Below, in pieces: positions 17,206 through 63,684 of a DNA stretch of 64,000 bases (position 1 is the stretch's first letter; every line of letters begins with the position of its first letter). This stretch comes from Alphaproteobacteria bacterium. GTDB taxonomy: Bacteria > Pseudomonadota > Alphaproteobacteria > Rs-D84 > SZUA-605. Position numbers and translations under genes: made by a program. The stretch is taken from contig JAVBPW010000001.1 of assembly GCA_031549385.1 (NCBI GenBank), forward strand, positions 67,348 through 131,347, written 5' to 3'. The notes beneath the pieces are model-generated. The model ran no database searches and was not told the DNA's origin. It saw only the letters and a list, made by a program, of their open reading frames with translations.

Positions 17206-18588
17206 ATGGATAAACTTTTAAAATCTGTTGCATATAATGCTTTAAAGAAACATCAAATATACTTAGAAGATGAAACCGTTGCTTCTTTGACTAAAGATAA
17301 TCCTAATAGATGGCAGGACTTTAGTTTAAATAAAGATTATTTGCTTGCTGATTTTTCTCATAACGTTTTTGATGCTAAAGCAACTGACCTTATGGTTAAG
17401 CTTTTCATAGCTCAAGGAATGGATAAAAAGTTAGGTGACTATTTTGAATTAGATAATGATTTCTCATATCACTTTATATATCGTTCTCAACGTGAAGATA
17501 AATATAAATACAATAATAAACTTGTTTATGCTGAGGTAGAAAAATTTCATCAAGCTATTTCAAAAGTAGAAGAAAAAATAGAAAACAAAGAAATTGAAGC
17601 TATATTCTTTACTGATTTTGTTATTATTGCATCTGATTATAATAAAAAGATGATTTCTTGCGTTTGCGAATCACTTAAAAGTTACAAAAAAATTGGAAGA
17701 AATATTCATTTTGCTTCTACTGTAGCTGAACTTGAAAAAATTTTACAAAAAGTATATGTGCAAAATACTTTCTTTGTTTTTGCTGATGTTGATTTTAAAA
17801 ATATCAATTTCTTTGACATGTATGACTTGTTGAAAAAACAACAATTTCATCTTTCTAAACAATCCGCATTTGTATGCCAAAATATAAAATTTGCTCAAAA
17901 CTTTGATGAAAAGAATGAAAATATTGTAAGTTACAGCTCTGCATGTAATGAAGTATTTAATTATTTTCCATTAATGATCTTACCTTTGCAGTTATATATT
18001 GGTAAGGACAATTTAAAAGATTTTTTAAATGGAATGCGAATCGCCGACAATGATGTTAAAACAGATTATTGTAAAAGTGCTTCTGTGAATTTATCATATC
18101 TTTATATTTGGTATTTATTGTTATGCAATGCTGAACTTTTCAATATTATTTGTAACCGAAAAATTAAACTGACCAGATATATAAATACTTTGGCTAGTGA
18201 GTTATTTTATATTAAGAATAATAAAAGTTTGAACATTTTATTTAAACAATACTCTCATGAAGATAAAAGATATTTGATTAATTTGATTGGTAAATATAAT
18301 CCTAATGCATCTGATTTAATTTACTTTAATGATAAAGATGATGAAAAGTTTTTATCTGATTTGTCTTTAATAGAAGGAACTGATTGCCCTGTTAATGTTA
18401 TTGCTTTTAAGAAAAATAATATAGAAAGTTTAGGAACTTTATTTGGAATTTATGAATACCTTGTTTTAATTTTAAAGTTTCTTTTAGATGGAAATTTAAA
18501 ATGTAGCGAATTTAATTTTGAAAATTCTATTAATTTGAAAAATAAAAATGTTTCTAACTTTGCGGAATTTTTAAAGGATAATAAATGA
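17206..18588 (+). CDS. Hypothetical protein (460 aa), overlaps mutL start by 4 nt (ATGA)
   Basis: Long ORF with an SD-like sequence aagaGGAtgaaaat before the ATG. No recognisable motif. Confidence 0.5.
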   Translation: MDKLLKSVAYNALKKHQIYLEDETVASLTKDNPNRWQDFSLNKDYLLADFSHNVFDAKATDLMVKLFIAQGMDKKLGDYFELDNDFSYHFIYRSQREDKYKYNNKLVYAEVEKFHQAISKVEEKIENKEIEAIFFTDFVIIASDYNKKMISCVCESLKSYKKIGRNIHFASTVAELEKILQKVYVQNTFFVFADVDFKNINFFDMYDLLKKQQFHLSKQSAFVCQNIKFAQNFDEKNENIVSYSSACNEVFNYFPLMILPLQLYIGKDNLKDFLNGMRIADNDVKTDYCKSASVNLSYLYIWYLLLCNAELFNIICNRKIKLTRYINTLASELFYIKNNKSLNILFKQYSHEDKRYLINLIGKYNPNASDLIYFNDKDDEKFLSDLSLIEGTDCPVNVIAFKKNNIESLGTLFGIYEYLVLILKFLLDGNLKCSEFNFENSINLKNKNVSNFAEFLKDNK

Positions 18589-20312
18589 TTATAAAAAGGC
18601 TTCCAGAACATATTATTAATCAAATATGTGCCGGAGAAATTGCCGAGAAGCCTTCTTCTATTATAAAAGAGTTAATTGAAAATTCTATTGATGCTGGAGC
18701 TTCTGAAATTAAAATACTTTTGGAAGATGCTGGAAAATCTAAAATAGTTATTTGGGATAATGGATCTGGTATGAGCAAGGAAGATTTGCTTTTATCAGTG
18801 GAGCGTCATACTACTTCAAAACTTAAAACTGATGATTTGTTTAATATTACTTCCCTTGGATTTAGAGGTGAAGCTTTGGCTTCGATTGCATCTGTTGCTA
18901 AATTGAAAATTATTACAAGCAATGGAAATGAAGCTTGGGAGTTAAAATTAGAAGATGGAAAAGCTTTAACTTGTACTCCTGCTTCACGAGTTCAGGGAAC
19001 TACTGTAGAAGTTTCTGATTTGTTTTATAAAATACCTGCTAGAGCTAAGTTTTTAAAATCCGATAAATCTGAGATGAGTGCTATTAATAACCTTATTGAA
19101 AAAATTGCTATTGCGAATCCAAATGTATATTTCAATGTAAATGATAAATTGAAGTTTAATAAAGGCTCTTATGATAATAGAATTTCTGAAATAATGGGAG
19201 ATGAGTTTTTTAAAAATTCATTAAAAATTGATACACAAAGGGAAAATTATAAACTTGATGGATTTATATCACTTCCATCTTATAACAAAGGGAATTCACT
19301 AAATATCTATATTTTTGTAAATGGAAGAATTATTAGAGATAAAAATTTAACCACACTCATTAAAGTTGCATATCAAGATGTTATGGCTTATGACAGATAT
19401 CCTGTTTGTGTTCTTAATTTACATGTAGATCCTCATGAAGTTGATATTAATGTTCATCCTTCTAAATTAGAAGTTCGTTTCTTACAAGAAGGTAAAATAA
19501 GGTCTTTTATTATGTCTGCTTTAAAGCAAGCTATTAATGATTACTGTTTGAGAGATTCATTCCAAAATGTAGAAAAAAACTTTGCTATTAATGAACAAAT
19601 AGACCTTTCTAGCGAATCAGGAAAAGTAACTGAACATAGTATCTTTGATTTTAAATATGATAGAGGCGAATCAACTTCAAAACCACCTTATCCTAGTTAT
19701 TCAAAACCTTTACAGGTTCATCAACATATTCCTCAAATTGAAGATGATTATCCTTTAGGTTTTGCTGTTACACAAATGTTTAAAACATATATTTTATCAA
19801 AAGCTGGAAATGATTTCTTTATTATAGATCAACATGCTGTACACGAAAGAATTGTTCTTGAAAAAATTAATAATAGAGAATTTAAAAGACAAATACTTCT
19901 TATACCTGATCAGTTTAAATTAGGCGATGAATATGTTGAAATTATAAATAATGTAAAAACAGAAATAGAAAGTTTAGGGGTTATTTTTAAAACTGAAAAT
20001 GACGAAGTCATTATTATTGAAATTCCTGATTATTTATATAGACAAAACTTAAAAGAAATCTTTATTAAAATATGTGAAGAAATTGCAGAATTTGATTTTT
20101 CAAAGGCTTTGGAAAAGACTATTCATAAAATTAATTCAACTGTTGCTTGTCATGGATCTATTCGAGCTGGACAAGAATTGTCTGTTGATGAAATGAACGC
20201 AATACTGCGACAACTTGAAATCACCCCTAGGGCTAGTGTGTGTAATCATGGTCGACCTACATTCTTTAAGGTTGACAAAAAATGGTTAGACAAATTGTTT
20301 GAAAGAATATAA
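18585..20312 (+). CDS. mutL: DNA mismatch repair protein MutL (endonuclease-type, DQHAxxE motif present)
   Basis: GHKL ATPase N-terminus (ELIENSIDAGAS). C-terminal region carries DQHAVHERIVLE and CNHGRP. Confidence 0.85.
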   Translation: MIIKRLPEHIINQICAGEIAEKPSSIIKELIENSIDAGASEIKILLEDAGKSKIVIWDNGSGMSKEDLLLSVERHTTSKLKTDDLFNITSLGFRGEALASIASVAKLKIITSNGNEAWELKLEDGKALTCTPASRVQGTTVEVSDLFYKIPARAKFLKSDKSEMSAINNLIEKIAIANPNVYFNVNDKLKFNKGSYDNRISEIMGDEFFKNSLKIDTQRENYKLDGFISLPSYNKGNSLNIYIFVNGRIIRDKNLTTLIKVAYQDVMAYDRYPVCVLNLHVDPHEVDINVHPSKLEVRFLQEGKIRSFIMSALKQAINDYCLRDSFQNVEKNFAINEQIDLSSESGKVTEHSIFDFKYDRGESTSKPPYPSYSKPLQVHQHIPQIEDDYPLGFAVTQMFKTYILSKAGNDFFIIDQHAVHERIVLEKINNREFKRQILLIPDQFKLGDEYVEIINNVKTEIESLGVIFKTENDEVIIIEIPDYLYRQNLKEIFIKICEEIAEFDFSKALEKTIHKINSTVACHGSIRAGQELSVDEMNAILRQLEITPRASVCNHGRPTFFKVDKKWLDKLFERI

Positions 20313-20464
20313 TTTGACAAAAAAAATAATCTTAAATTTTTTAAATTTTTCTTTGTAAATTCTCTTGAATCTTAATTTTTGACTCCTAGATGTTTGATAG
20401 GGAAGAAGGCAAAAACTAACAAGGCTGCCTAAATGGGCGGGCTCCAAAACAAAGGAGACTAATT

Positions 20465-20938
20465 ATGCAGAGAGAACCTATTACAGTTACAGGTAAACAA
20501 ATATTAGAACAAGAATTAAAATATTTAAAAGAAATTCAAAGACCAATCATTATCAATGAACTTGCTAATAACATAGAACTTGGTAATTTGCCTGAAAATG
20601 GTGGTTATGAAGCTGCTAAAGAAGAGCAAGGATTAACTGAAGCTAGAATTGCCGAAATTGAAAGTGCTCTTGCATCATCTTATGTTATAAACCCTTCTGA
20701 ATTTAAAGGCGATGGGAATATAAAATTTGGTGCAAGAGTTATGTTAGAAGATAATGATGGAGTTTTAAAAATTTACACAATTGTTGGTATTCCAGAAATA
20801 GATGTTCGTAAAGGACGCATTCCTTTCAATTCACCCATTGCTCGTGAATTAATTGGAAAAAAAGTTGGTGATCAAGTGATTGTTGTTACTCCAAGTGGCG
20901 AGAAAATTTTCGAAATTAAAAGAGTTGAATACACTTAG
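20465..20938 (+). CDS. GreA/GreB-family transcript cleavage factor paralog with divergent coiled-coil tip (GNLPENGGY)
   Basis: 157 aa aligning end-to-end with GreA. The position equivalent to catalytic Asp41 is Asn. Confidence 0.75.
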   Translation: MQREPITVTGKQILEQELKYLKEIQRPIIINELANNIELGNLPENGGYEAAKEEQGLTEARIAEIESALASSYVINPSEFKGDGNIKFGARVMLEDNDGVLKIYTIVGIPEIDVRKGRIPFNSPIARELIGKKVGDQVIVVTPSGEKIFEIKRVEYT

Positions 20939-21077
20939 AATCAAGCACAAATTTCTTTGTGCTTGATTTTGATAAATATTTCATTATATATGAGTTATGA
21001 AAATAAATTAATTTAACATAATGAAAATTAACCATCCATTATTGGAATGGTGTTTTTTTTTAAATGAGGTAAAAATT

Positions 21078-21551
21078 ATGGAACGTAAACCAATTACTCC
21101 TAGAGGTAAGGATTTATTAGAAGTAGAGTTAAAAGACTTGAAAGAAGTTAAGAGACCTGCTGTTATTAATGAAGTTGCATCTGCACGTGAAAAAGGCGAT
21201 TTGAAAGAAAATGCTGAATATCATGCTGCACGTGAAGCACAAGGATTAACTGAAGCTAGAATTACTGAAATCGAATCAATTCTTGCTACTTCTGATGTTA
21301 TAAATTCAAAAGATTTTAAAGGTGATACTCAAGTTAAATTTGGTGCAAAAGTTTCATTGGAAGATGAAGATGGATTAAAAAAAGAATATACTATTGTTGG
21401 TATTCCTGAAAGTGATGTTTCTAAAGGATTTATTCCTTTTAATTCACCTGTTGCAAGAGCGTTAATTGGAAAGAATATTGGTGAAGAAGTTGAAGTAAGA
21501 ACACCAGGTGGGGAAAAAATTTTTGTAATCAATGGAGTTGAATACGTTTAA
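21078..21551 (+). CDS. greA: Transcription elongation factor GreA (canonical GDLKENAEYHAAREAQG tip)
   Basis: 157 aa from the ATG at 21078, preceded by gaggtaaaa. Canonical acidic tip residues. Confidence 0.8.
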   Translation: MERKPITPRGKDLLEVELKDLKEVKRPAVINEVASAREKGDLKENAEYHAAREAQGLTEARITEIESILATSDVINSKDFKGDTQVKFGAKVSLEDEDGLKKEYTIVGIPESDVSKGFIPFNSPVARALIGKNIGEEVEVRTPGGEKIFVINGVEYV

Positions 21552-21663
21552 CCAAAATTAAAAATAGCTAAAAAATCCAAATAAAGTTTGGATTTTTTTT
21601 ATTTTCTTACTTGTTATATATTGAATTTTATGATATAATTCACGTGTTTATAGGAGAAAACTC

Positions 21664-23823
21664 ATGAGAAAATTTTTATTAGTATTGACTATTTTATCAG
21701 TTGGTGTGCTGGGGGCTGCTAATGCGCAAACCCGCCAAACATCTGCACAAAAGACTGAAAATACAGGAGCTAGAGCTGCAAGAACTACAACTTCAACAAC
21801 TGCTGGATCAAGGGCAACTTCTACTTCTGGAAATAGAGGCACTTCTCAACGTGCTGCAAGAATGACTCCTAAAACTACTGCTACTACTGAAAGATCTGCT
21901 GTTTCTCGTCGTGCTGGTGTTGTGAAAACTGCTGCTCCTGCTGTTACTACTACAACTACTACTACTGCTGCGACTACAACTACTACTGCTAAAACTGAAG
22001 ATGAAATGACTGCTGCTGAATTACAAGCTGCTTATGATGAAAAAATGAGCAAAGTAGAAGCTAAATTAGGCGTGCAATCTCAATGCCAAGAAAAATTTGC
22101 TGAATGTATGGATGCTTCTTGTAAAGATGATACTTATGGAAGATGTCTATGTGCCGCTTCATATTCAGAACTTAATCCATTAAAAAAAGAAATTGAACAA
22201 TTGAATAAAGAAACTAATGCTTTACTTCAAGAAGAATTAGCTCGTGCTAAGATGACTGAAAAAGAAAGAGAATTTTATGAACAACAAAAAATTTCTTTAA
22301 ATCTTAAAGATGAAAGTGAAGAAATTGAATACGGCGCTGTTACTGCTGAATCTTTACTTGCTGATTATAAGAATGCTGGACAAGCTACTGGACCAAAAAC
22401 AGGAACAGTTTTATTTGGTGATGCTCATAAAGCATGTAAACCAATATTAGACGCATGTCCCGCTGAAAGCAAAGCTATTTTAACTTATTACCAAAATATG
22501 GCTAATAAAGAATGTTCTGTTGCTAAAGCTTCTTTAGAAGAACAAAAAGCTCAAGCTGTGTTTGCTAGACAAAAAGCAGAATTCACAGTTAAAAAAGCAG
22601 CTTATACTACTGTTTCTCAAAAATTAGATAATGCTACTTGTTTATCTGAATTGCAAGCTCTTGCTCTTACAGATTCTCTTTGTGGAAAAGATTATTCTAA
22701 ATGCTTAAACTGTAATGAAGATTTTAATGGAAAAACTTATAAATTAGAACTTTCTAATCCAGCTGATACTACTGATATGACTTCAGCTTATTCAAAATCA
22801 TTTACTGGATGTGCTGCTTCTAATGTTCAAAAGATGGTTGCAAGAAAAGAAGTTTATAATACTGTGTTAAATAAGTGTCAAGCTCCTACCGTTGCTTGGA
22901 ATACTTTTATGATTGATTTTGCTTCTACTATGGAAAAGGCTGAAAGAGATCAATTGTTTACTTATAATACTGAACAAAGAGAAAAAGAATTTAATGTTGC
23001 TGATACTTGTCAAAAAGATATTGATAAATGTTTAAAAGACATTTGTGGTACTGGATATATTTCATGTACTGCTAGAGAAAAAGCTGCTAATTATAACCTA
23101 GCTTTAATTGGTGAAGAAAATGCTCTTATCGCATGTAACAATGTATATGCAAGATGTGACTCAAGAGTTCAAGATGCTCAAAATAGCGGAAGCGACACTT
23201 CTTCTATAGATGTTGAATCTATCTGGACAGCTGCTTGGAAGAGAGCTCAAAACCAAGCTGATATAACATATCAAAAGAGATTAGCTGCTTTGATTAAAGA
23301 AACTGCTGACGTAACAAAAGCTGAATTGAAAATGGAATCTGAAATTGCAGAAGAACGTGCAAGAGCTGAAAATACTCAATCAAGAATTGGTGATGTGCTT
23401 GCTTCAGAAAATGCATTAGAAGATGCAAGACTTGGTGCTCAACTTGCTAAAGCTGAACTTGAAGAAGCTAAAAATAAAACTGAAAAAGAAGTTGCAAAAC
23501 AAACTGCTATGAATGCTGCTGGAATGGCTACAGCTCAAAGAGGTTGTGGAAAAGCTGCTGGTAAGTGGGAAAAGAATAATTGCTTCTGGACAGTTACTGC
23601 AAAAGGATACACAAGCAAACGTGGAGTTTTCGGACGTGAAAAATCTCGTGATGATAAAGAAAATGTTATAAAGTTTGCTGCTGGATCTAAGTTTACTTGT
23701 AACTCTGCTACTATGGGTGTACCAACAGATTATGGTTGTTCATGGGACGGTGGAACTGTACAAAATGGCCAGTCATATACATTCCCTTCATTGGAAGAAT
23801 TATCCAGTGACTCAGACTACTAA
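21664..23823 (+). CDS. Secreted Thr-rich / Cys-rich coiled-coil protein (719 aa)
   Basis: Signal peptide MRKFLLVLTILSVGVLGAANA. Thr-rich low-complexity region, more than 20 Cys, coiled-coil segments. A strong terminator follows. Confidence 0.6.
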   Translation: MRKFLLVLTILSVGVLGAANAQTRQTSAQKTENTGARAARTTTSTTAGSRATSTSGNRGTSQRAARMTPKTTATTERSAVSRRAGVVKTAAPAVTTTTTTTAATTTTTAKTEDEMTAAELQAAYDEKMSKVEAKLGVQSQCQEKFAECMDASCKDDTYGRCLCAASYSELNPLKKEIEQLNKETNALLQEELARAKMTEKEREFYEQQKISLNLKDESEEIEYGAVTAESLLADYKNAGQATGPKTGTVLFGDAHKACKPILDACPAESKAILTYYQNMANKECSVAKASLEEQKAQAVFARQKAEFTVKKAAYTTVSQKLDNATCLSELQALALTDSLCGKDYSKCLNCNEDFNGKTYKLELSNPADTTDMTSAYSKSFTGCAASNVQKMVARKEVYNTVLNKCQAPTVAWNTFMIDFASTMEKAERDQLFTYNTEQREKEFNVADTCQKDIDKCLKDICGTGYISCTAREKAANYNLALIGEENALIACNNVYARCDSRVQDAQNSGSDTSSIDVESIWTAAWKRAQNQADITYQKRLAALIKETADVTKAELKMESEIAEERARAENTQSRIGDVLASENALEDARLGAQLAKAELEEAKNKTEKEVAKQTAMNAAGMATAQRGCGKAAGKWEKNNCFWTVTAKGYTSKRGVFGREKSRDDKENVIKFAAGSKFTCNSATMGVPTDYGCSWDGGTVQNGQSYTFPSLEELSSDSDY

Positions 23824-57966: not shown

Positions 57967-59157
57967 TTAATTCCTTTCGTCTATAAAGCCCATTATGTGT
58001 AGATAGTATCCTAAAGCACCACCTTGAAGTAGTTGCAATCTTATATAATAACCTCCATCTTGATTTACTGGATAACTATCTACTACTACAGTTACTCCAC
58101 TTAATGGATTTGTTTTTACTAATAATTTTGCAGGGTCAGTTGAATGATATCTCATTTCAATTAAAAAATTATATCCTTCTACAGATAGTATCGGACGAAT
58201 CAAGTTTCCAAAGCCAATATCAACAAATTCAAAATTTTTATTTACTATTTGATAATCTAGTTGAATTTTTGGAGTGAATACTCTTACTGCTCCTCCTGCT
58301 TGTTCAAATGTAGTTATTTGAAGAATATTACCTGTTGAATCTGTTTTTATTATTCCTACTCTTCTGAACTTTGTAAAACTTCCTGAATTTTTTATTAAGT
58401 TAACTGCATTTTTGTCTGTATCAAACCCTGCGTCTACTTCCATTGTTTTTGGATTTAGTAAAACAAATACATAATAAACTTGATTATTTAACATAACCAT
58501 GTTTGGTGCAAGACCACCTGAAGTTGTTCCTTTTTCAAAATTCAAATTTAACTTCTTACTTATTGGAGATTTTAATACTATATCACAAGTATCCTCATAA
58601 TCTCTTGCACGACCTTTAGAAATTACTATTTCTTTATTGATATTAGTTGTAAGATTTGAAACTAATAAACCTTCTATATATCTTGGAGGAAGACCTACAT
58701 ATTCCATTAGAGTTTCTTTATATATGTGAGGAGTTATTGCTTTATCTGTATTTTGACCATCAATTGCTTCTTGTTTTGTCGCAAGAGAGATTACCCCTCT
58801 TTTGTTTGAACTTGCATAGCTTTCTTGAGTGCAATTGCTTAAGTCATTTTTTAATAAACCTTTTGCAAGAAGAGTTGATGTGTCTACATTGCTTAAATCA
58901 GTTTTTACTATACCTTTGTCTGTAAATACTTCATCTGATACGTTTGATAAATTTGAATCTGTTAAACCTTTATTTAATAAAGTTTGAAGTTCTACATTTT
59001 CTAAATCTTCCCTTGCTAGAGGCATTCCACCTACTGTTTTGTTGTCATGAATCACTCCTGTTGATTTGTCTGTGTCTACTGTAATTTCTCCTGAAAGACC
59101 GGTAAACAACCCATGTTTGGCAGTTGAGCCACGACGAAATTGTACTGCTTTTGTCAT
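57967..59157 (-). CDS. Phage tail-fibre-like protein (396 aa)
   Basis: SD AAAGGAAT. N-terminus MTKAVQFRRGSTA...GEITVDTD...VIHDNKTVGG resembles the tail-fibre/Mtd N-domain. Repeated DLSNV units. SLATKQEAIDGQNTDKAITP matches the widespread tail-fibre ATxxEAxxGTDxxKAxTP motif. Confidence 0.5.
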   Translation of the reverse strand: MTKAVQFRRGSTAKHGLFTGLSGEITVDTDKSTGVIHDNKTVGGMPLAREDLENVELQTLLNKGLTDSNLSNVSDEVFTDKGIVKTDLSNVDTSTLLAKGLLKNDLSNCTQESYASSNKRGVISLATKQEAIDGQNTDKAITPHIYKETLMEYVGLPPRYIEGLLVSNLTTNINKEIVISKGRARDYEDTCDIVLKSPISKKLNLNFEKGTTSGGLAPNMVMLNNQVYYVFVLLNPKTMEVDAGFDTDKNAVNLIKNSGSFTKFRRVGIIKTDSTGNILQITTFEQAGGAVRVFTPKIQLDYQIVNKNFEFVDIGFGNLIRPILSVEGYNFLIEMRYHSTDPAKLLVKTNPLSGVTVVVDSYPVNQDGGYYIRLQLLQGGALGYYLHIMGFIDERN

Positions 59158-59185
59158 TTTATATTCCTTTATATTTAAAATAAAA

Positions 59186-59215
59186 AATACCAAAATAAAT
59201 TAATATTTTGGTATT
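59186..59215 (-). terminator. Perfect palindrome aataccaaaataaattaatattttggtatt flanked by A/T runs
   Basis: 12-bp stem with A6 upstream and A6 downstream on the plus strand, so a T-run on the minus strand. Sits between the membrane-protein array and the tail-fibre gene. Confidence 0.5.
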
Positions 59216-59281
59216 AAAAAATGGGCACTATTGTCCCATAAATCTTTGTTTATTATACAAAATATTTTTCAAAAAGTCAAG

Positions 59282-60637
59282 TTATTTCTTTTTATATATC
59301 TTTGCCATAATACTTTTTGCTTGAGCTTTTTGAGTATTTTCAACACTTGTAACTTGAGCATTTATGTAATTTTTTACGTTGTTTGTAAAGCTTGCTTCTT
59401 TTAGTAAACCTTCAGCTTCTTTTTTTAATATTGTAAACATATAAAAACCTAATTGTAAGCCAAATATCATCTTTAACCAGTTAATCCAATTTGCAGGATT
59501 GTGGAAACCTGCTATTAGACCCGCAATTACTGTTCCTTTTATTTCACCATTGTCATCATAAAATACACTGTCTGGATTCATTAAATCTTTTGCTTGAAGC
59601 ATATTGTCACCTGCCGACATACCTGTTGGAATATCAATTACCATTTCACCAAGAACGTATTGTAAGAAGATTCCTAAAATTCCAATAGCTACCGACCAAA
59701 ATAGAAAACCCAATACTCCATTCTTAAACATATTAACTATATTAGCTCGCCAACCACTTGCAAATTTTAAAAATCCACTTTCTTCATTTTCTAATGCATA
59801 TGAAAATATAGCTAGAGGGAATAACATTATAGACAAACATATCTGAAGTATTACAGATATCATCATCCATAACATTTCAAGCCCAAGACTAAACCCTTTG
59901 GTTATGAAAAAAAATCCTACAGAAAAAACTACATATGACATATATTCAAGTGCTTTACTTACAATTCTGCCAACATAAGGAATCATGTTTGCAAAAAATG
60001 AACCTATAAATTCTCCTGCTGATGTTACCGTCATCCAAGTTCCTAGCCTCATTAAAACATCAATTTGTTTTGCACTTATGTTTACTGGGCAAACTATTTT
60101 TGCTTTTGTTTCTGCAGAGATTGCCTCATCAGCTTCTGGATTTGCTTCTTTTGTGTAATTTTCTACACACTTTTCATAATTACTATCTACATTAACCATA
60201 AATCCTGTTGTATAGGTGGAGGCTAAATTTAATATTGGATCAACTGTTATTTCAAAAAGAAACTTTTGATTAGTGTTTAAAAGTATTAATGAAATAAGAA
60301 CAAAGAAGAGTCTTTTCCAAAAACTTTTTCTTAAAAATTTATAATCTTCTTGATTTAATATTACTCTTATTACTATTCCCGCTATGTAAAACAAAAAGAA
60401 TATGTAGATCAAATTTCTTACTAATTTAGCTAAAAGTTCTGCAGTTGAATATGCAAGTGGAGATAAAGCATCAAGAACAATCATGCCTAATGATGATATC
60501 CAATTAGGTATATTTCCTGTTACTTCAATAACATCTCTTGTTATTACTCTGGTACCAGTTTTAAGAACTTGAGCATAAAGAGCATCACAGCTTAAACATA
60601 ATAATACAATCATAAATAGGAATAAAATTTTCTTCAT
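59282..60637 (-). CDS. Polytopic membrane protein paralog 3 (451 aa), signal peptide; VirB6/TrbL-like architecture
   Basis: Signal peptide MKKILFLFMIVLLCLSCDALYA. Multiple TM helices. Shares LxxPLxI...E...W motif block with the two upstream genes. Confidence 0.45.
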   Translation of the reverse strand: MKKILFLFMIVLLCLSCDALYAQVLKTGTRVITRDVIEVTGNIPNWISSLGMIVLDALSPLAYSTAELLAKLVRNLIYIFFLFYIAGIVIRVILNQEDYKFLRKSFWKRLFFVLISLILLNTNQKFLFEITVDPILNLASTYTTGFMVNVDSNYEKCVENYTKEANPEADEAISAETKAKIVCPVNISAKQIDVLMRLGTWMTVTSAGEFIGSFFANMIPYVGRIVSKALEYMSYVVFSVGFFFITKGFSLGLEMLWMMISVILQICLSIMLFPLAIFSYALENEESGFLKFASGWRANIVNMFKNGVLGFLFWSVAIGILGIFLQYVLGEMVIDIPTGMSAGDNMLQAKDLMNPDSVFYDDNGEIKGTVIAGLIAGFHNPANWINWLKMIFGLQLGFYMFTILKKEAEGLLKEASFTNNVKNYINAQVTSVENTQKAQAKSIMAKIYKKK

Positions 60638-62055
60638 TATTTCAATTTACCTCCTATGAAATCCATTATAAAGTTTCCACCATTTTTTAATTTATCAAGA
60701 CCTTTATTGAATAAATCTATTCCTAGGTTGCTTAAATTATTAATCAATAAATCTTCTTTATTTAGTTTTACCTTTCCTTTTATAAAATTAAACATTTCAA
60801 ATGTTAGTTTTGATAATGCCATAATTATTAAAAGCATCATTAATCCCCAATTTGTGTCTGGAGTTGGTAATTTTTTGTAACAATCTAATGTTTGTTTGTT
60901 TAATTTAGACATATCTATATTAGTACTCCAAGTGTCACCTTTAAGACTTGAACTTTTTATTATTTCAACACATTTATCATATTCTTGCTTAGCTTTTGAT
61001 GCTTGCCTTGTATCAACTTTATTAAAATAGTCAGGGAAAAGATATGAATAATTATCTTGAGGGCCTGGAAAATATATGTCACCAACCTTCATATAAACTG
61101 CATATACAACAACAAATGCTATTGATAATGTTACCATATAGAGAGCAGCATTTATTACGGCATTAAGAGCAAAAGATTTCATCCAATCAACTGGTTTTTT
61201 AAGAGCTGTTTCAAATACCCATCCCACCAGAAGTAATGGTAAGATTATAACTGGAATTAATAATGATATTAAAATATCTAACATCATAAAGGCTATATAT
61301 AAAAGCAATGAGAAGAAAGCTAGGAATATCCAATAACCAGATAGAGTTGCTGTTATACTCATCATACTCATTCCCATAGACATTAGCTGTCCACCACCTT
61401 GCATTCCACCCATCATAATTAATGATGTTGATGATACATAACATAAGAAGTCTTTTTTCATTTCATTTGAAAATACAGAATCATCTGCCCCGCCACCTTC
61501 TGACTTATAGTTATCACACATACCTTCTGGAAGTTGTAGGATACTTTGAGAAACATAACTTCCCATTTTCATTACTGGACCTATATAACCTCTTGCTGCT
61601 AATTTTACAAAATTGATTGTTGAATTTGTAAATGCTCCTAATAATATTGTTATTAAAACAGCTCTCCATAATCTGCCTATTATTTTGCTTAGATATTGTT
61701 TTGGAGTTGTTTCATTTACTTTTAGAATTGTTTCAAATGTATAATATATTGTCCATAATACTAATCCTATTGCTAATAATTGCATTGATGATGAGATTAA
61801 AAAGTCAAGAGCATAGTCTGCGGCTACTCTAAATACATCAAATAATTTTGCTAATAAATCACAACCTATACATGACGATGAATTTATAACATCACATCCT
61901 GGTTGTGTTGGATCGCATCCTATTGTACTTGTTAGCCAATCAGTTACATTGCCACCACCAGCACCTTTGTTTGTTGGGGATGCAAAAAATATTACAAGAA
62001 ACGGTAGTACCGAAAATGTAAAATATTTAATAAGCATAAATATAATTTTTGCCAT
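60637..62055 (-). CDS. Polytopic membrane protein paralog 2 (472 aa), signal peptide; VirB6/TrbL-like architecture
   Basis: Signal peptide plus TM bundle. GGM/Q-rich loop. ISLLIPVIILPLLLVGWVFE...VDWMKSF block. Confidence 0.45.
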   Translation of the reverse strand: MAKIIFMLIKYFTFSVLPFLVIFFASPTNKGAGGGNVTDWLTSTIGCDPTQPGCDVINSSSCIGCDLLAKLFDVFRVAADYALDFLISSSMQLLAIGLVLWTIYYTFETILKVNETTPKQYLSKIIGRLWRAVLITILLGAFTNSTINFVKLAARGYIGPVMKMGSYVSQSILQLPEGMCDNYKSEGGGADDSVFSNEMKKDFLCYVSSTSLIMMGGMQGGGQLMSMGMSMMSITATLSGYWIFLAFFSLLLYIAFMMLDILISLLIPVIILPLLLVGWVFETALKKPVDWMKSFALNAVINAALYMVTLSIAFVVVYAVYMKVGDIYFPGPQDNYSYLFPDYFNKVDTRQASKAKQEYDKCVEIIKSSSLKGDTWSTNIDMSKLNKQTLDCYKKLPTPDTNWGLMMLLIIMALSKLTFEMFNFIKGKVKLNKEDLLINNLSNLGIDLFNKGLDKLKNGGNFIMDFIGGKLK

Positions 62056-62058
62056 CTC

Positions 62059-63684
62059 TTAAAACCATCCTTTTATTTTTCCAAAAACATTTTTAACACC
62101 ACCCCAAGCTTGCTTTCCATAAGCCCTTACACCACGAGCATATCTTGGGTCTAATCTTAAATTTGCAGCGTCTTTGAATTTAGTTTTTGTATCAAGAACA
62201 TCTTTTACGCCATCAATTGCATTGTCTTCAAATTTTTTACCATAACCGCTGTCAAAATCACTTATATCTTTATCAAAGTATTTTACAAATTCATTTGTAT
62301 ATTTTGGTATTTGTTTTATGAAATGACTTGATATAAAACCTATGATTATTAATTCAAATAATCCAGCTCCAAAATAGCCTAATTTTTCTGCTATTTCAGG
62401 TGTTATGTTTTCTGCATCTGGTAAAGATATAGCTTTTAACATAAGCATTATTAGCATAGTAAAGAATGCTGTAAAAATACTTATGAAACAAATTTGAACT
62501 AGACTTTTCCAAATATCTTTGAATGAAAAGAAATTTGTTTTGTAATCAATTACCCAGAAAGCTATTGATAATGGTAAGAAGAATAGACATTTACATATTT
62601 CTATTAACGGTGAAATAAGATACATAGAAATTGCAAAAAGATTTTTTAAGAATAAAAATATTAATATTAATCCTGGAATTATTTTGAATTTACCTAGTAA
62701 ACTGAAACCTAATAAAACAGGTTCCATTAAAACTTTGAAACTGCTTTGAACTAAACACATATAGTTTTGTTTGAATGAGTTTCCTAGCATTTCAAATTCA
62801 CCACCCATGTTAGAAAGATTATATGTACATGAGAAATCTTTACCCATTATTCCTTGGACTAAAATTGACGTTAGATCAAATATTGGCTTTGCAATAAATT
62901 CTATTATTTCTTTTGGAATAAAAAATGTAGTTGGAGCTGGGAGAAGGACTAAACCTGCTATTATTAATTTTACAGCTTGCTTTACATATTTTTTATTCAT
63001 ATCTTTTGGGCTCATAGTAGGTCCCGTGATTCCACCATATATACCTTTGAAAATATCCCAACCTAAAAATATTATTAGAAGGCATGCTGTCATATAAAAT
63101 ACAAAATCTTTTATGTTCACAAAAAACATGTACGTATATTGAGAAATAAAATTATAAAAAGTTTCATATATAGGACAAATGAAACAACCTGATTTGAAAG
63201 TTTTAATAGCCATAAAGAAACCTTCGTTATAACATCCTGGTCTCCAATCTATTGTCTTTATATCATAGCTTCCTATTTTTAGTTGAGATTTTGACTTAGT
63301 TTCTTTTGTTGGAGCCATAACGCCTAATGTTTGACCAAATGGGGATAAAAATTGACCTCTGGAAACTGATACTGGTCTGTATGCTGAAGATAATATATTA
63401 AACTCATCAAATCCATAATCAGAACAAATATCCCATGCAATTCTTCCTCTTTTTTCAAATTGCCCTTTGTCATTTAAAAATACATTTTGAGTTGATTTAT
63501 CCATTTTAATTCTTTCATCTATTATTTGACTTATAGTTGAAGAATCAATTAGCATTCTTCTTTGGCTTGCTATTTGATGAATTTCATTTGCTATACCTGG
63601 ATTTAAATCAAATGATATAAATATTGATGGATTTGTATCTTGTGGGAAAAGCTTTAAATAATCAGAATAACTTATTTTACCCAT
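62059..63684 (-). CDS. Polytopic membrane protein paralog 1 (541 aa from ATG; probably N-terminally extended to about 63858 with a signal peptide)
   Basis: Large periplasmic-like N-domain then TM bundle (CLFFLPLSIAFWVIDY...KDIWKSL). The in-frame upstream reads IKQLRIIFAVLTFVLFANNAHA, preceded by AGGAGG. Confidence 0.45.
   Translation of the reverse strand: MGKISYSDYLKLFPQDTNPSIFISFDLNPGIANEIHQIASQRRMLIDSSTISQIIDERIKMDKSTQNVFLNDKGQFEKRGRIAWDICSDYGFDEFNILSSAYRPVSVSRGQFLSPFGQTLGVMAPTKETKSKSQLKIGSYDIKTIDWRPGCYNEGFFMAIKTFKSGCFICPIYETFYNFISQYTYMFFVNIKDFVFYMTACLLIIFLGWDIFKGIYGGITGPTMSPKDMNKKYVKQAVKLIIAGLVLLPAPTTFFIPKEIIEFIAKPIFDLTSILVQGIMGKDFSCTYNLSNMGGEFEMLGNSFKQNYMCLVQSSFKVLMEPVLLGFSLLGKFKIIPGLILIFLFLKNLFAISMYLISPLIEICKCLFFLPLSIAFWVIDYKTNFFSFKDIWKSLVQICFISIFTAFFTMLIMLMLKAISLPDAENITPEIAEKLGYFGAGLFELIIIGFISSHFIKQIPKYTNEFVKYFDKDISDFDSGYGKKFEDNAIDGVKDVLDTKTKFKDAANLRLDPRYARGVRAYGKQAWGGVKNVFGKIKGWF

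Follow-up and report, generated by a model that had tools for sequence, protein, structure and literature searches.

In a 64,000-nucleotide stretch of DNA from Alphaproteobacteria bacterium (contig JAVBPW010000001.1, positions 67,348 to 131,347; hereafter the window, by which we mean this whole stretch), two genes of 157 codons each encode homologues of the transcript cleavage factor GreA, by which stalled RNA polymerase is rescued, lying head to tail on the forward strand with 139 nucleotides between them. We refer to the upstream copy as greA1 and to the downstream copy as greA2 (Table 1). GreA2 has a canonical coiled-coil tip, while that of GreA1 is extensively remodelled and has Asn in place of the Asp at position 41. 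The explanation that we favor, with a probability of roughly 0.55, is that GreA1 is a cleavage-dead occupant of the RNA polymerase (RNAP) secondary channel that competes with the canonical GreA2.

Both proteins have the architecture of the GreA/GreB family, in that each exceeds the gathering cut-offs of both Pfam domains (in the case of greA1, 67.6 bits for GreA_GreB_N, PF03449, and 72.2 bits for GreA_GreB, PF01272), in agreement with the earlier note, which had described two head-to-tail GreA homologues of 157 amino acids. Against the NCBIfam GreA equivalog model NF001261 (cut-off 167), GreA1 scores 164.8, just below the cut-off, and GreA2 scores 188, whereas against TIGR01462 (cut-off 139) GreA1 lies just above (140.2) and GreA2 clearly above (162.9). 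The greA2 start that we use, which encodes MERKPIT from position 21078, is supported both by the homologue alignment and by the genes called on a separate Logan contig; the list of open reading frames (ORFs) places it further 5′, at 21021. A tblastn search of the window found no third Gre copy. GreA1 and GreA2 are 65% identical over 156 residues without gaps, and are thus closer to each other than the earlier note's estimate by eye of about 50%.

The phmmer alignment to E. coli GreA (PDB 1grj; E = 4.5e-32) places residues 1–100 of GreA1 without an indel, with N41 on D41, E44 on E44, and G46 G47 on A46 E47, as the earlier note had read it. In particular, an indel-shifted register in which the Asp would be retained was looked for, and the absence of any indel over these residues rules it out. 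The tip reads GNLPENGGY in GreA1 (in longer form, ELGNLPENGGY) compared to GDLKENAEY in GreA2, exactly as previously noted. We scored the tip columns against an alignment of the 238 nearest homologues of GreA1 and GreA2. Column 41 is Asp in 237 of these proteins, the sole exception being P0087, which has Ala, and Asn occurs in none, which places the change in GreA1 beyond chance. G40, L42, E44, N45 and Y48 are invariant among the homologues and are all retained in GreA1; D41, A36, R37, A46 and E47 are conserved at ∼100%, and H49 at 99%, and it is at these columns that GreA1 departs (A36N, R37I, D41N, A46G, E47G and H49E), with K39L and K43P as additional changes within the tip. By comparison, GreA2 carries the consensus residue at every conserved tip column, and stands alone only once at a column conserved at ≥90% (E150V). 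Lone departures of GreA1 from columns conserved at ≥95% are concentrated in residues 36–49, where they affect 6 of 11 such columns, but only 2 of the 48 in the rest of the protein (p = 2e-4, Fisher test). Over the wider tip segment 33–54, no homologue exceeds 50% identity to GreA1, compared to 82% between GreA2 and E. coli GreA, a comparison that spans bacterial classes. The only acidic residues left in ELGNLPENGGY are E38 and E44, with both D41 and E47 gone. In addition, the N-terminal domain of GreA1 contains 7 basic residues compared to 13 in GreA2, such that six have been lost. A basic patch of the Gre N-terminal domain contacts the 3′ RNA fragment.

The Asn41 codon of greA1 is AAT (20585–20587), and the D41N change taken alone is a single G>A substitution in a pair that is carried by a single source genome. 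On these grounds, an artefact of assembly or sequencing might be suspected for either the Asn codon or the tandem pair, but we regard it as extremely unlikely. A 13-kb Logan contig (SRR23967709) and a 455-kb NCBI contig each encode both proteins exactly, and the two copies differ at 30% of their nucleotides, which argues against a collapsed or expanded repeat. Furthermore, the other tip changes require two or three substitutions per codon (for example, K43P, AAA>CCT; E47G, GAA>GGT; H49E, CAT>GAA; and R37I, CGT>ATA), and, given the number of nucleotide changes involved, the remodelled tip is not the result of one base-call error.

Tandem duplication of a housekeeping greA inside this lineage is the simplest history for greA1, judging from the relationship between the two proteins. 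They share 27 residues at which both differ from the family consensus, and in region-wise nearest-neighbor bootstraps they are mutual nearest neighbors outside the tip (bootstrap ≥0.94), with identities of 70% in the N-terminal domain minus the tip and 66% in the C-terminal domain. Likewise, GreA2 (65%) was the top match of GreA1 when 1.84 billion cluster representatives were scanned exhaustively with HMMER, all others being at ≤52%, although, as this library is clustered at 50% identity, an orthologue from a sister species could hide behind the cluster of GreA2. The genes are 70% identical at the nucleotide level, and 59% identical at third positions. The synonymous divergence (dS) is 0.8 by the method of Nei and Gojobori (NG86) and saturated in the maximum-likelihood estimate, such that dS is at least 0.8, and dN/dS is ∼0.37 (NG86) or lower. 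By these measures, the duplication is old, and we note that DNA similarity ends at the edges of the coding regions, with the duplication junctions no longer recognizable.

Despite this age, the reading frame of greA1 has remained open. In simulations of neutral change with the AT-rich base composition of the genome, 0.1 substitutions per site left the greA1 ORF open in 3.8% of runs, and 0.2 substitutions per site left it open in 0.4%. When also taking into account that dN/dS is below 1 and that GreA1 keeps 46 of the 48 family-conserved residues outside the tip, an open frame after 30% divergence indicates that greA1 is not decaying, and we consider it highly probable from these comparisons that GreA1 is a real, selectively maintained paralogue. 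The earlier note had allowed for the upstream copy being a pseudogenizing duplicate; as far as decay is concerned, this does not hold, since the gene is intact and under purifying selection outside the tip. An early-stage pseudogene, still open by chance and heading for loss, would be in line with the NF001261 score just under the cut-off, with the 18 unique substitutions in GreA1 compared to 9 in GreA2 (a difference that is not significant, p = 0.12), and with the fact that no greA1 orthologue is known. Set against the open frame and the conserved columns, however, as well as against a strong ribosome-binding site and a terminator-like hairpin belonging to greA1 itself, we find this very unlikely. 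The pattern that emerges is of a maintained scaffold on which the tip specifically was rewritten, and a single genome does not divide adaptation of the tip from its mere release from constraint.

The likely effect of losing this Asp can be gauged from engineered Gre factors. E. coli GreA D41N serves as a “cleavage-deficient” control (PMC5100998), and the activity of M. tuberculosis Gre was “completely abolished” by the D43N substitution whereas E46R retained activity, such that, of these two acidic residues, it is the Asp that matters more (PMC3132773). M. tuberculosis Gre was, however, without effect on the RNAP of E. coli (PMC3132773). The requirement for this Asp in cleavage, on which the earlier note relied, is thus borne out by D-to-N mutants of two species. 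These laboratory mutants, together with E. coli D41A E44Y, are deficient in cleavage or antipause activity, and resemble GreA1 in having lost the tip Asp from a GreA-like protein (through D-to-N in all except D41A E44Y). They differ from it in being single or double engineered changes, whereas GreA1 is a natural gene beside a wild-type copy, and carries at least seven further tip changes (all those listed above other than D41N). On the basis of this comparison, GreA1 is likely to be cleavage-deficient.

It is also conceivable that GreA1 still cleaves, but with an altered specificity (for instance, as to the metal preferred, the length of the fragment or the kind of paused complex acted on), giving a division of labor of the kind seen between GreA and GreB. 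In line with this, E44, N45 and Y48 are all kept, and the equivalents of N45 and Y48 are reported to bind the protruding backtracked RNA (PMC3132773). Some GreA-family representatives with an intact Asp41 also have one or other of G46 and G47 (GDLRENAGY and GDLKENGEY), and the remainder of GreA1 is under purifying selection. Nevertheless, the D-to-N substitution removes the stimulation of cleavage in both E. coli and M. tuberculosis, there is neither a nearby compensating Asp nor an indel, and six basic residues have been lost from the N-terminal domain, whereas a GreB-like factor would require a gain, making an altered specificity unlikely overall.

Turning to whether a cleavage-dead GreA1 would still reach the polymerase, the AlphaFold2 model of GreA1 (predicted local distance difference test score, pLDDT, of 88) superimposes on E. 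coli GreA (1grj) with a template-modeling (TM) score of 0.90. It contains a full-length coiled coil formed by helices 8–38 and 46–71, with the tip loop at 39–45, followed by the C-terminal β domain. TM scores to Gfh1 of 0.84 for the RNAP-bound form and 0.45 for the free form correspond to the GreA-like (active) orientation of the domains, although this is a single model, which is silent on switching. Also retained in GreA1 are P5 and L69, together with the SP(I)AR-LIGK helix of the RNAP-binding domain, although this helix carries an A128E substitution. At codon 120 (20822–20824 in greA1 and 21435–21437 in greA2), the residue that corresponds to Ser121 of E. coli GreA is Pro in each of the two paralogues, whereas Pro occurs in this column in 0 of the 238 homologues. 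In E. coli GreA, S121P reduces RNAP binding (PMC7527559). The shared-derived Pro120 suggests that the interface between Gre and RNAP has co-evolved in this lineage.

Tip mutants of E. coli GreA further illustrate what a non-cleaving factor can do in the cell. The in vivo phenotypes of greA-D41N and E44K often exceed those of the deletion, leading the authors to suggest that the defective D41N and E44K proteins still bind RNAP and compete with other factors, and mutant GreA proteins were toxic at high level (PMC3078854). Similarly, overproduced GreA D41A E44Y was as lethal as the wild type (PMC7527559). Tip mutants of this kind thus appear to act on RNAP still.

Alternatively, GreA1 could have been kept for a tip-independent role other than competition with GreA2, either as a chaperone or through a DksA/GreB-type effect on initiation or open complexes. 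A conserved scaffold with a free tip would fit such a role, and E. coli GreA reportedly has chaperone activity. The lethality of GreA overproduction is, moreover, independent of its antipause activity (PMC7527559). However, our analysis yielded no specific evidence for such a function, which on its own would leave unexplained why the tip has undergone so many changes instead of slight drift. We consider it decidedly unlikely as a separate explanation, while noting that it overlaps with channel competition by GreA1, as both start from a cleavage-dead protein.

The arrangement of the intergenic regions bears on whether the two copies could be expressed independently. The hairpin that begins at the greA1 stop codon has a 16-bp stem and a folding energy of −19 kcal mol–1 (z = −5.5, with 0 of 200 shuffles folding as well), although it was not flagged by a consensus scan. 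Further downstream, the bulged hairpin ACCATCCA-TTAT-TGGAATGGT, followed by G and nine T, ends 5 nucleotides before the GAGG ribosome-binding site of greA2 and 17 nucleotides before its ATG, and would act either as an attenuator in the leader of greA2 or as a further terminator of greA1. These roles are suggested by analogy, as the leader of E. coli greA has an intrinsic terminator that yields GraL, and GreA autoregulation seems to rely on this terminator (PMC2836576). The hairpin 3′ of greA2 folds at −12.8 kcal mol–1 (z = −3.8, again with 0 of 200 shuffles folding as well). The upstream leader of greA1 shows no significant structure (z = −0.8), and a search of 20250–21750 against Rfam gave no match at E ≤ 1. 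A hairpin directly after greA1 and a separate leader before greA2 suggest independent expression of the copies, and, going by these hairpins, greA1 and greA2 are probably separate transcription units.

Table 1. Features of the greA1–greA2 region, with positions numbered from the first nucleotide of the window.
Feature	Position	Strand	Description and basis
Ribosome-binding site of greA1 (GGAG)	20454–20457	+	7 nt 5′ of the ATG; read from the sequence
greA1	20465–20938, including stop codon	+	157-aa GreA paralogue with remodelled coiled-coil tip; ORF and Pfam
Remodelled tip of GreA1, residues 36–49	20570–20611	+	Column-wise comparison with 238 homologues
Terminator-like hairpin from the greA1 stop codon, then UUUUGAU	20936–20975	+	RNA fold
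Bulged hairpin (21031–21051), then G and nine U	21031–21061	+	Intergenic fold, z = −5.1
greA2	21078–21551, including stop codon	+	Canonical 157-aa GreA, tip GDLKENAEY
AT-rich terminator-like hairpin and U-run 3′ of greA2	21561–21605	+	RNA fold

Taking these observations together, we propose the following sequence of events. A tandem duplication of the housekeeping greA gave rise to greA1, a step that can be read from the two genes themselves. Selection then retained the fold, the interdomain contacts and the C-terminal RNAP-binding domain, the constraint being visible in the conserved columns and binding being the presumed consequence. The part of the protein that reaches the active site, on the other hand, has been rewritten, with the Mg2+-ligating Asp41 replaced by Asn, Arg37 lost, Ala46-Glu47 changed to Gly-Gly and six basic residues gone. 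By analogy with the D-to-N laboratory mutants, the resulting GreA1 would most likely be unable to stimulate transcript cleavage while still docking in the secondary channel, where, as a non-catalytic factor, it would compete with GreA2 and any DksA-like factor. Such competition could tune the speed at which backtracked complexes are rescued, and, if the copies are indeed independently expressed, the balance between dead and live factor could itself be under regulation. These steps do not all carry the same weight: we place the action of GreA1 as a regulatory competitor at somewhat short of even odds, and the strongest version of the proposal, in which GreA1 is a dedicated natural anti-Gre factor made in the simplest conceivable way (a duplicated greA with a dead tip and transcriptional control of its own that throttles the rescue of backtracked polymerase), is a doubtful one.

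Several points weigh against channel competition by a cleavage-dead GreA1. Residual or altered cleavage may persist, as E44, N45 and Y48 are kept and Asn can ligate Mg2+ weakly. Within the C-terminal domain, A128E alters a helix, SP(L/I)ARALIGK, that is otherwise highly conserved, and binding to the polymerase could suffer as a result. It may also be that the tip has not been adapted and is simply free of constraint: 12 of the 22 tip positions (33–54) differ from GreA2, about as many as neutral change would produce at a true dS of ∼0.8, although far fewer than it would produce if dS is saturated. N41 is, in addition, known from one genome, without orthologues. Finally, promoter consensus matches are no commoner than in shuffled sequences.

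Comparison with known secondary-channel factors helps to define what kind of competitor GreA1 could be. Gfh1, the anti-GreA factor of Thermus and Deinococcus, is a Gre-fold paralogue found beside an active GreA, which enters the secondary channel without stimulating cleavage. Its acidic tip residues introduce a kink in the bridge helix and hold the trigger loop locked (PMC5715097), and a pH-dependent flip of its C-terminal domain governs its binding to RNAP (PMC4598747). Gfh1 keeps the conserved acidic tip residues that it requires (PMC4598747, PMC5715097), whereas GreA1 has lost D41 and E47, and Gfh1 is an ancient paralogue of another phylum, whereas GreA1 is a lineage-internal duplicate of GreA. 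Matches of GreA1 to Gfh1 chains range from E = 8e-9 to 4e-8. An orthologous relationship can be discarded, since Gfh1 is only ∼28% identical to GreA1, the nearest relative of which is the adjacent GreA2.

The mycobacterial Rv3788 similarly has a Gre-like architecture, does not cleave, and competes with Gre for RNAP (PMC3132773, PMC4598747), with its acidic tip residues being critical for inhibition (PMC4598747). It keeps both acidic residues but lacks the Asn/Tyr pair that contacts RNA, whereas GreA1 shows the reverse, having lost the Asp and kept N45 and Y48 (PMC3132773); this opposite tip pattern rules out GreA1 as an inhibitor of the Rv3788 type. Thus, where the earlier note had suggested a competitor or regulator like Gfh1, the first part stands as the best reading, in light of the D-to-N mutants and the E. 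coli tip mutants, while the second fails both as a mechanism and as a family assignment, given that Gfh1 and Rv3788 keep acidic tips and that GreA1 is far nearer to GreA. “Gfh1-like” is apt for GreA1 only as a loose functional analogy.

By our analysis, the nearest conceptual parallel to GreA1 is archaeal TFS4. Like what we propose for GreA1, TFS4 is a lineage-restricted duplicate (of TFS1) in which the acidic tip has been replaced, and which does not cleave and competes for RNAP; it is induced by virus infection, and is conserved in most Sulfolobales (PMC5715097). The fold of TFS4 is unrelated, however, being a zinc ribbon, and its tip gained three inhibitory lysines, whereas the GreA1 tip is neutral and glycine-rich, with fewer basic residues. 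Rnk and DksA/TraR also bind in the secondary channel and compete with Gre factors (PMC4598747). GreA1 is not an Rnk, as the coiled coil of Rnk is much shorter and cannot reach the active site, whereas the helices of GreA1 are of GreA length, and GreA1 scores 40 against a cut-off of 126 for the Rnk-type NCBIfam model (“nucleoside diphosphate kinase regulator”). The DksA family is absent among the Pfam and NCBIfam matches of the pair.

GreA1 would in this sense be a natural variant among the known non-cleaving Gre-fold occupants of the secondary channel, of which Gfh1, Rv3788 and Rnk have been described as competitors, with physiological roles that are listed as unknown (PMC4598747). If GreA1 is indeed a dedicated anti-Gre factor, it would be the first natural Gre-family antagonist that acts through loss of the acidic tip rather than its retention, and a bacterial counterpart of archaeal TFS1/TFS4, with the extent of throttling set by the ratio of dead to live factor, for instance under stress or during slow growth. 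As the presumably inactive partner can still be recognized as a copy of its active neighbor, and their differences cluster within ∼14 residues, the pair would constitute a clean natural experiment: two 65%-identical proteins from one cell could reveal the effect of a dead channel occupant, and which tip residues matter beyond Asp41. There is also a caution for annotation, since both copies would be named “transcription elongation factor GreA”, while the upstream one probably lacks the defining reaction. The novelty of GreA1 is tempered by the fact that other Gre proteins with variant tips seem to be recurrent and under-annotated, as described below.

No greA1 orthologue or closely related genome was found in any collection searched. 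For orthologues, this rests on the HMMER scan described above, as a word-indexed protein search missed each paralogue when started from the other. Alignment-derived patterns (YTIVGIPE and GEKIF..) gave no Gre relative in the contigs of 185,579 Genome Taxonomy Database (GTDB) representatives, from which it follows that the source genome is not one of these. Elongation factor G (EF-G) from the window is 62–72% identical to its counterparts in the GTDB representatives, the best of which (71–72%) come from assorted Alphaproteobacteria, and none of the loci of these best matches contains greA. Metagenome contigs gave at most 48% identity, and no tandem second copy is present at any of ∼20 other Gre loci. 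A literature search on GreA1/GreA2 pairs returned nothing relevant.

Among the variant Gre proteins encountered is a GreA-annotated subfamily that is abundant in metagenomes, with the tip “ADDSNLAENPEY” (P0259, P0351, P0374 and others), which is one residue longer than the canonical tip. The tip pattern of this “DDxNL” subfamily is A(I/M)(A/S)DDxN(L/F)xEN(P/S/A)(E/D)Y, and one of its 90% clusters has 236 members. As in GreA1, Asn directly precedes Leu42, and Arg37, Ala46 and His49 are changed. Unlike GreA1, these proteins have two acidic residues (usually Asp-Asp, or Asp-Glu) two to three residues upstream. GreA1 is 44–47% identical to them compared to 65% to GreA2, and neither membership in this subfamily nor partial homogenization with it can be sustained, as GreA1 lacks both the insertion and the acidic pair, and each of its regions outside the tip is closest to GreA2. 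“DDxNL” genes occur at loci L094 (10001–10477) and L097 (10001–10486), and also at L095, L096, L098 and L099, in the neighborhood of genes for HSP20, CinA and a KaiC-like ATPase with a hybrid histidine kinase, or of ImuB-like (IMS), UvrD, SRAP and MerR genes. The proteins look like accessory Gre paralogues associated with stress or DNA damage. A further variant is the 168-residue Gre-like protein P0294 (L100, 6001–6507; also L101, 2952–3458), the tip of which, GCLADNPEF, has Cys at the position of Asp41 and Asp at that of Glu44. Its surroundings are phage-like, with an ERF recombinase, two ankyrin-repeat proteins, Arm-type DNA-binding proteins and many small orphan ORFs, and it may be a secondary-channel factor encoded by a mobile element. 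GreA1 does not belong to this type.

With regard to genomic context, greA1 is preceded by a divergent phosphoglucose isomerase (PGI)-like gene and then mutL. The remainder of the window is of housekeeping character, with a ribosomal-protein region that includes fusA, and with leuS, dnaK, rsmH, tsaD, ftsK and tolB, as well as genes for an FtsI-like penicillin-binding protein transpeptidase, a release factor and a GatA-like amidase. These surroundings indicate that the greA pair is chromosomal rather than part of a mobile element. The window contains neither rpoC nor any dksA or greB. The PGI-like gene itself (17206–18588, forward strand) is an ORF of 460 codons that overlaps the start of mutL by 4 nucleotides, and the product of which has a weak Pfam PGI match (35 bits, residues 49–316); judged from this match, it is a very divergent phosphoglucose isomerase-like protein. 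Directly 3′ of greA2, and on the same strand, lies an orphan ORF of 719 codons (21664–23823) without a Pfam or PHROG match, which encodes a signal-peptide-like N-terminus, a Thr/Ala-rich low-complexity stretch, many Cys residues and long charged segments resembling coiled coils. On the reverse strand, the block at 57967–63684 includes a 408-residue protein with an Mtd_N (major tropism determinant N-terminal) domain and PHROG matches to tail and tail-collar-fiber proteins, beside which three large ORFs on the same strand (451, 472 and 541 amino acids) have no family match. This block may be a prophage, tailocin or gene transfer agent remnant amid the housekeeping genes.

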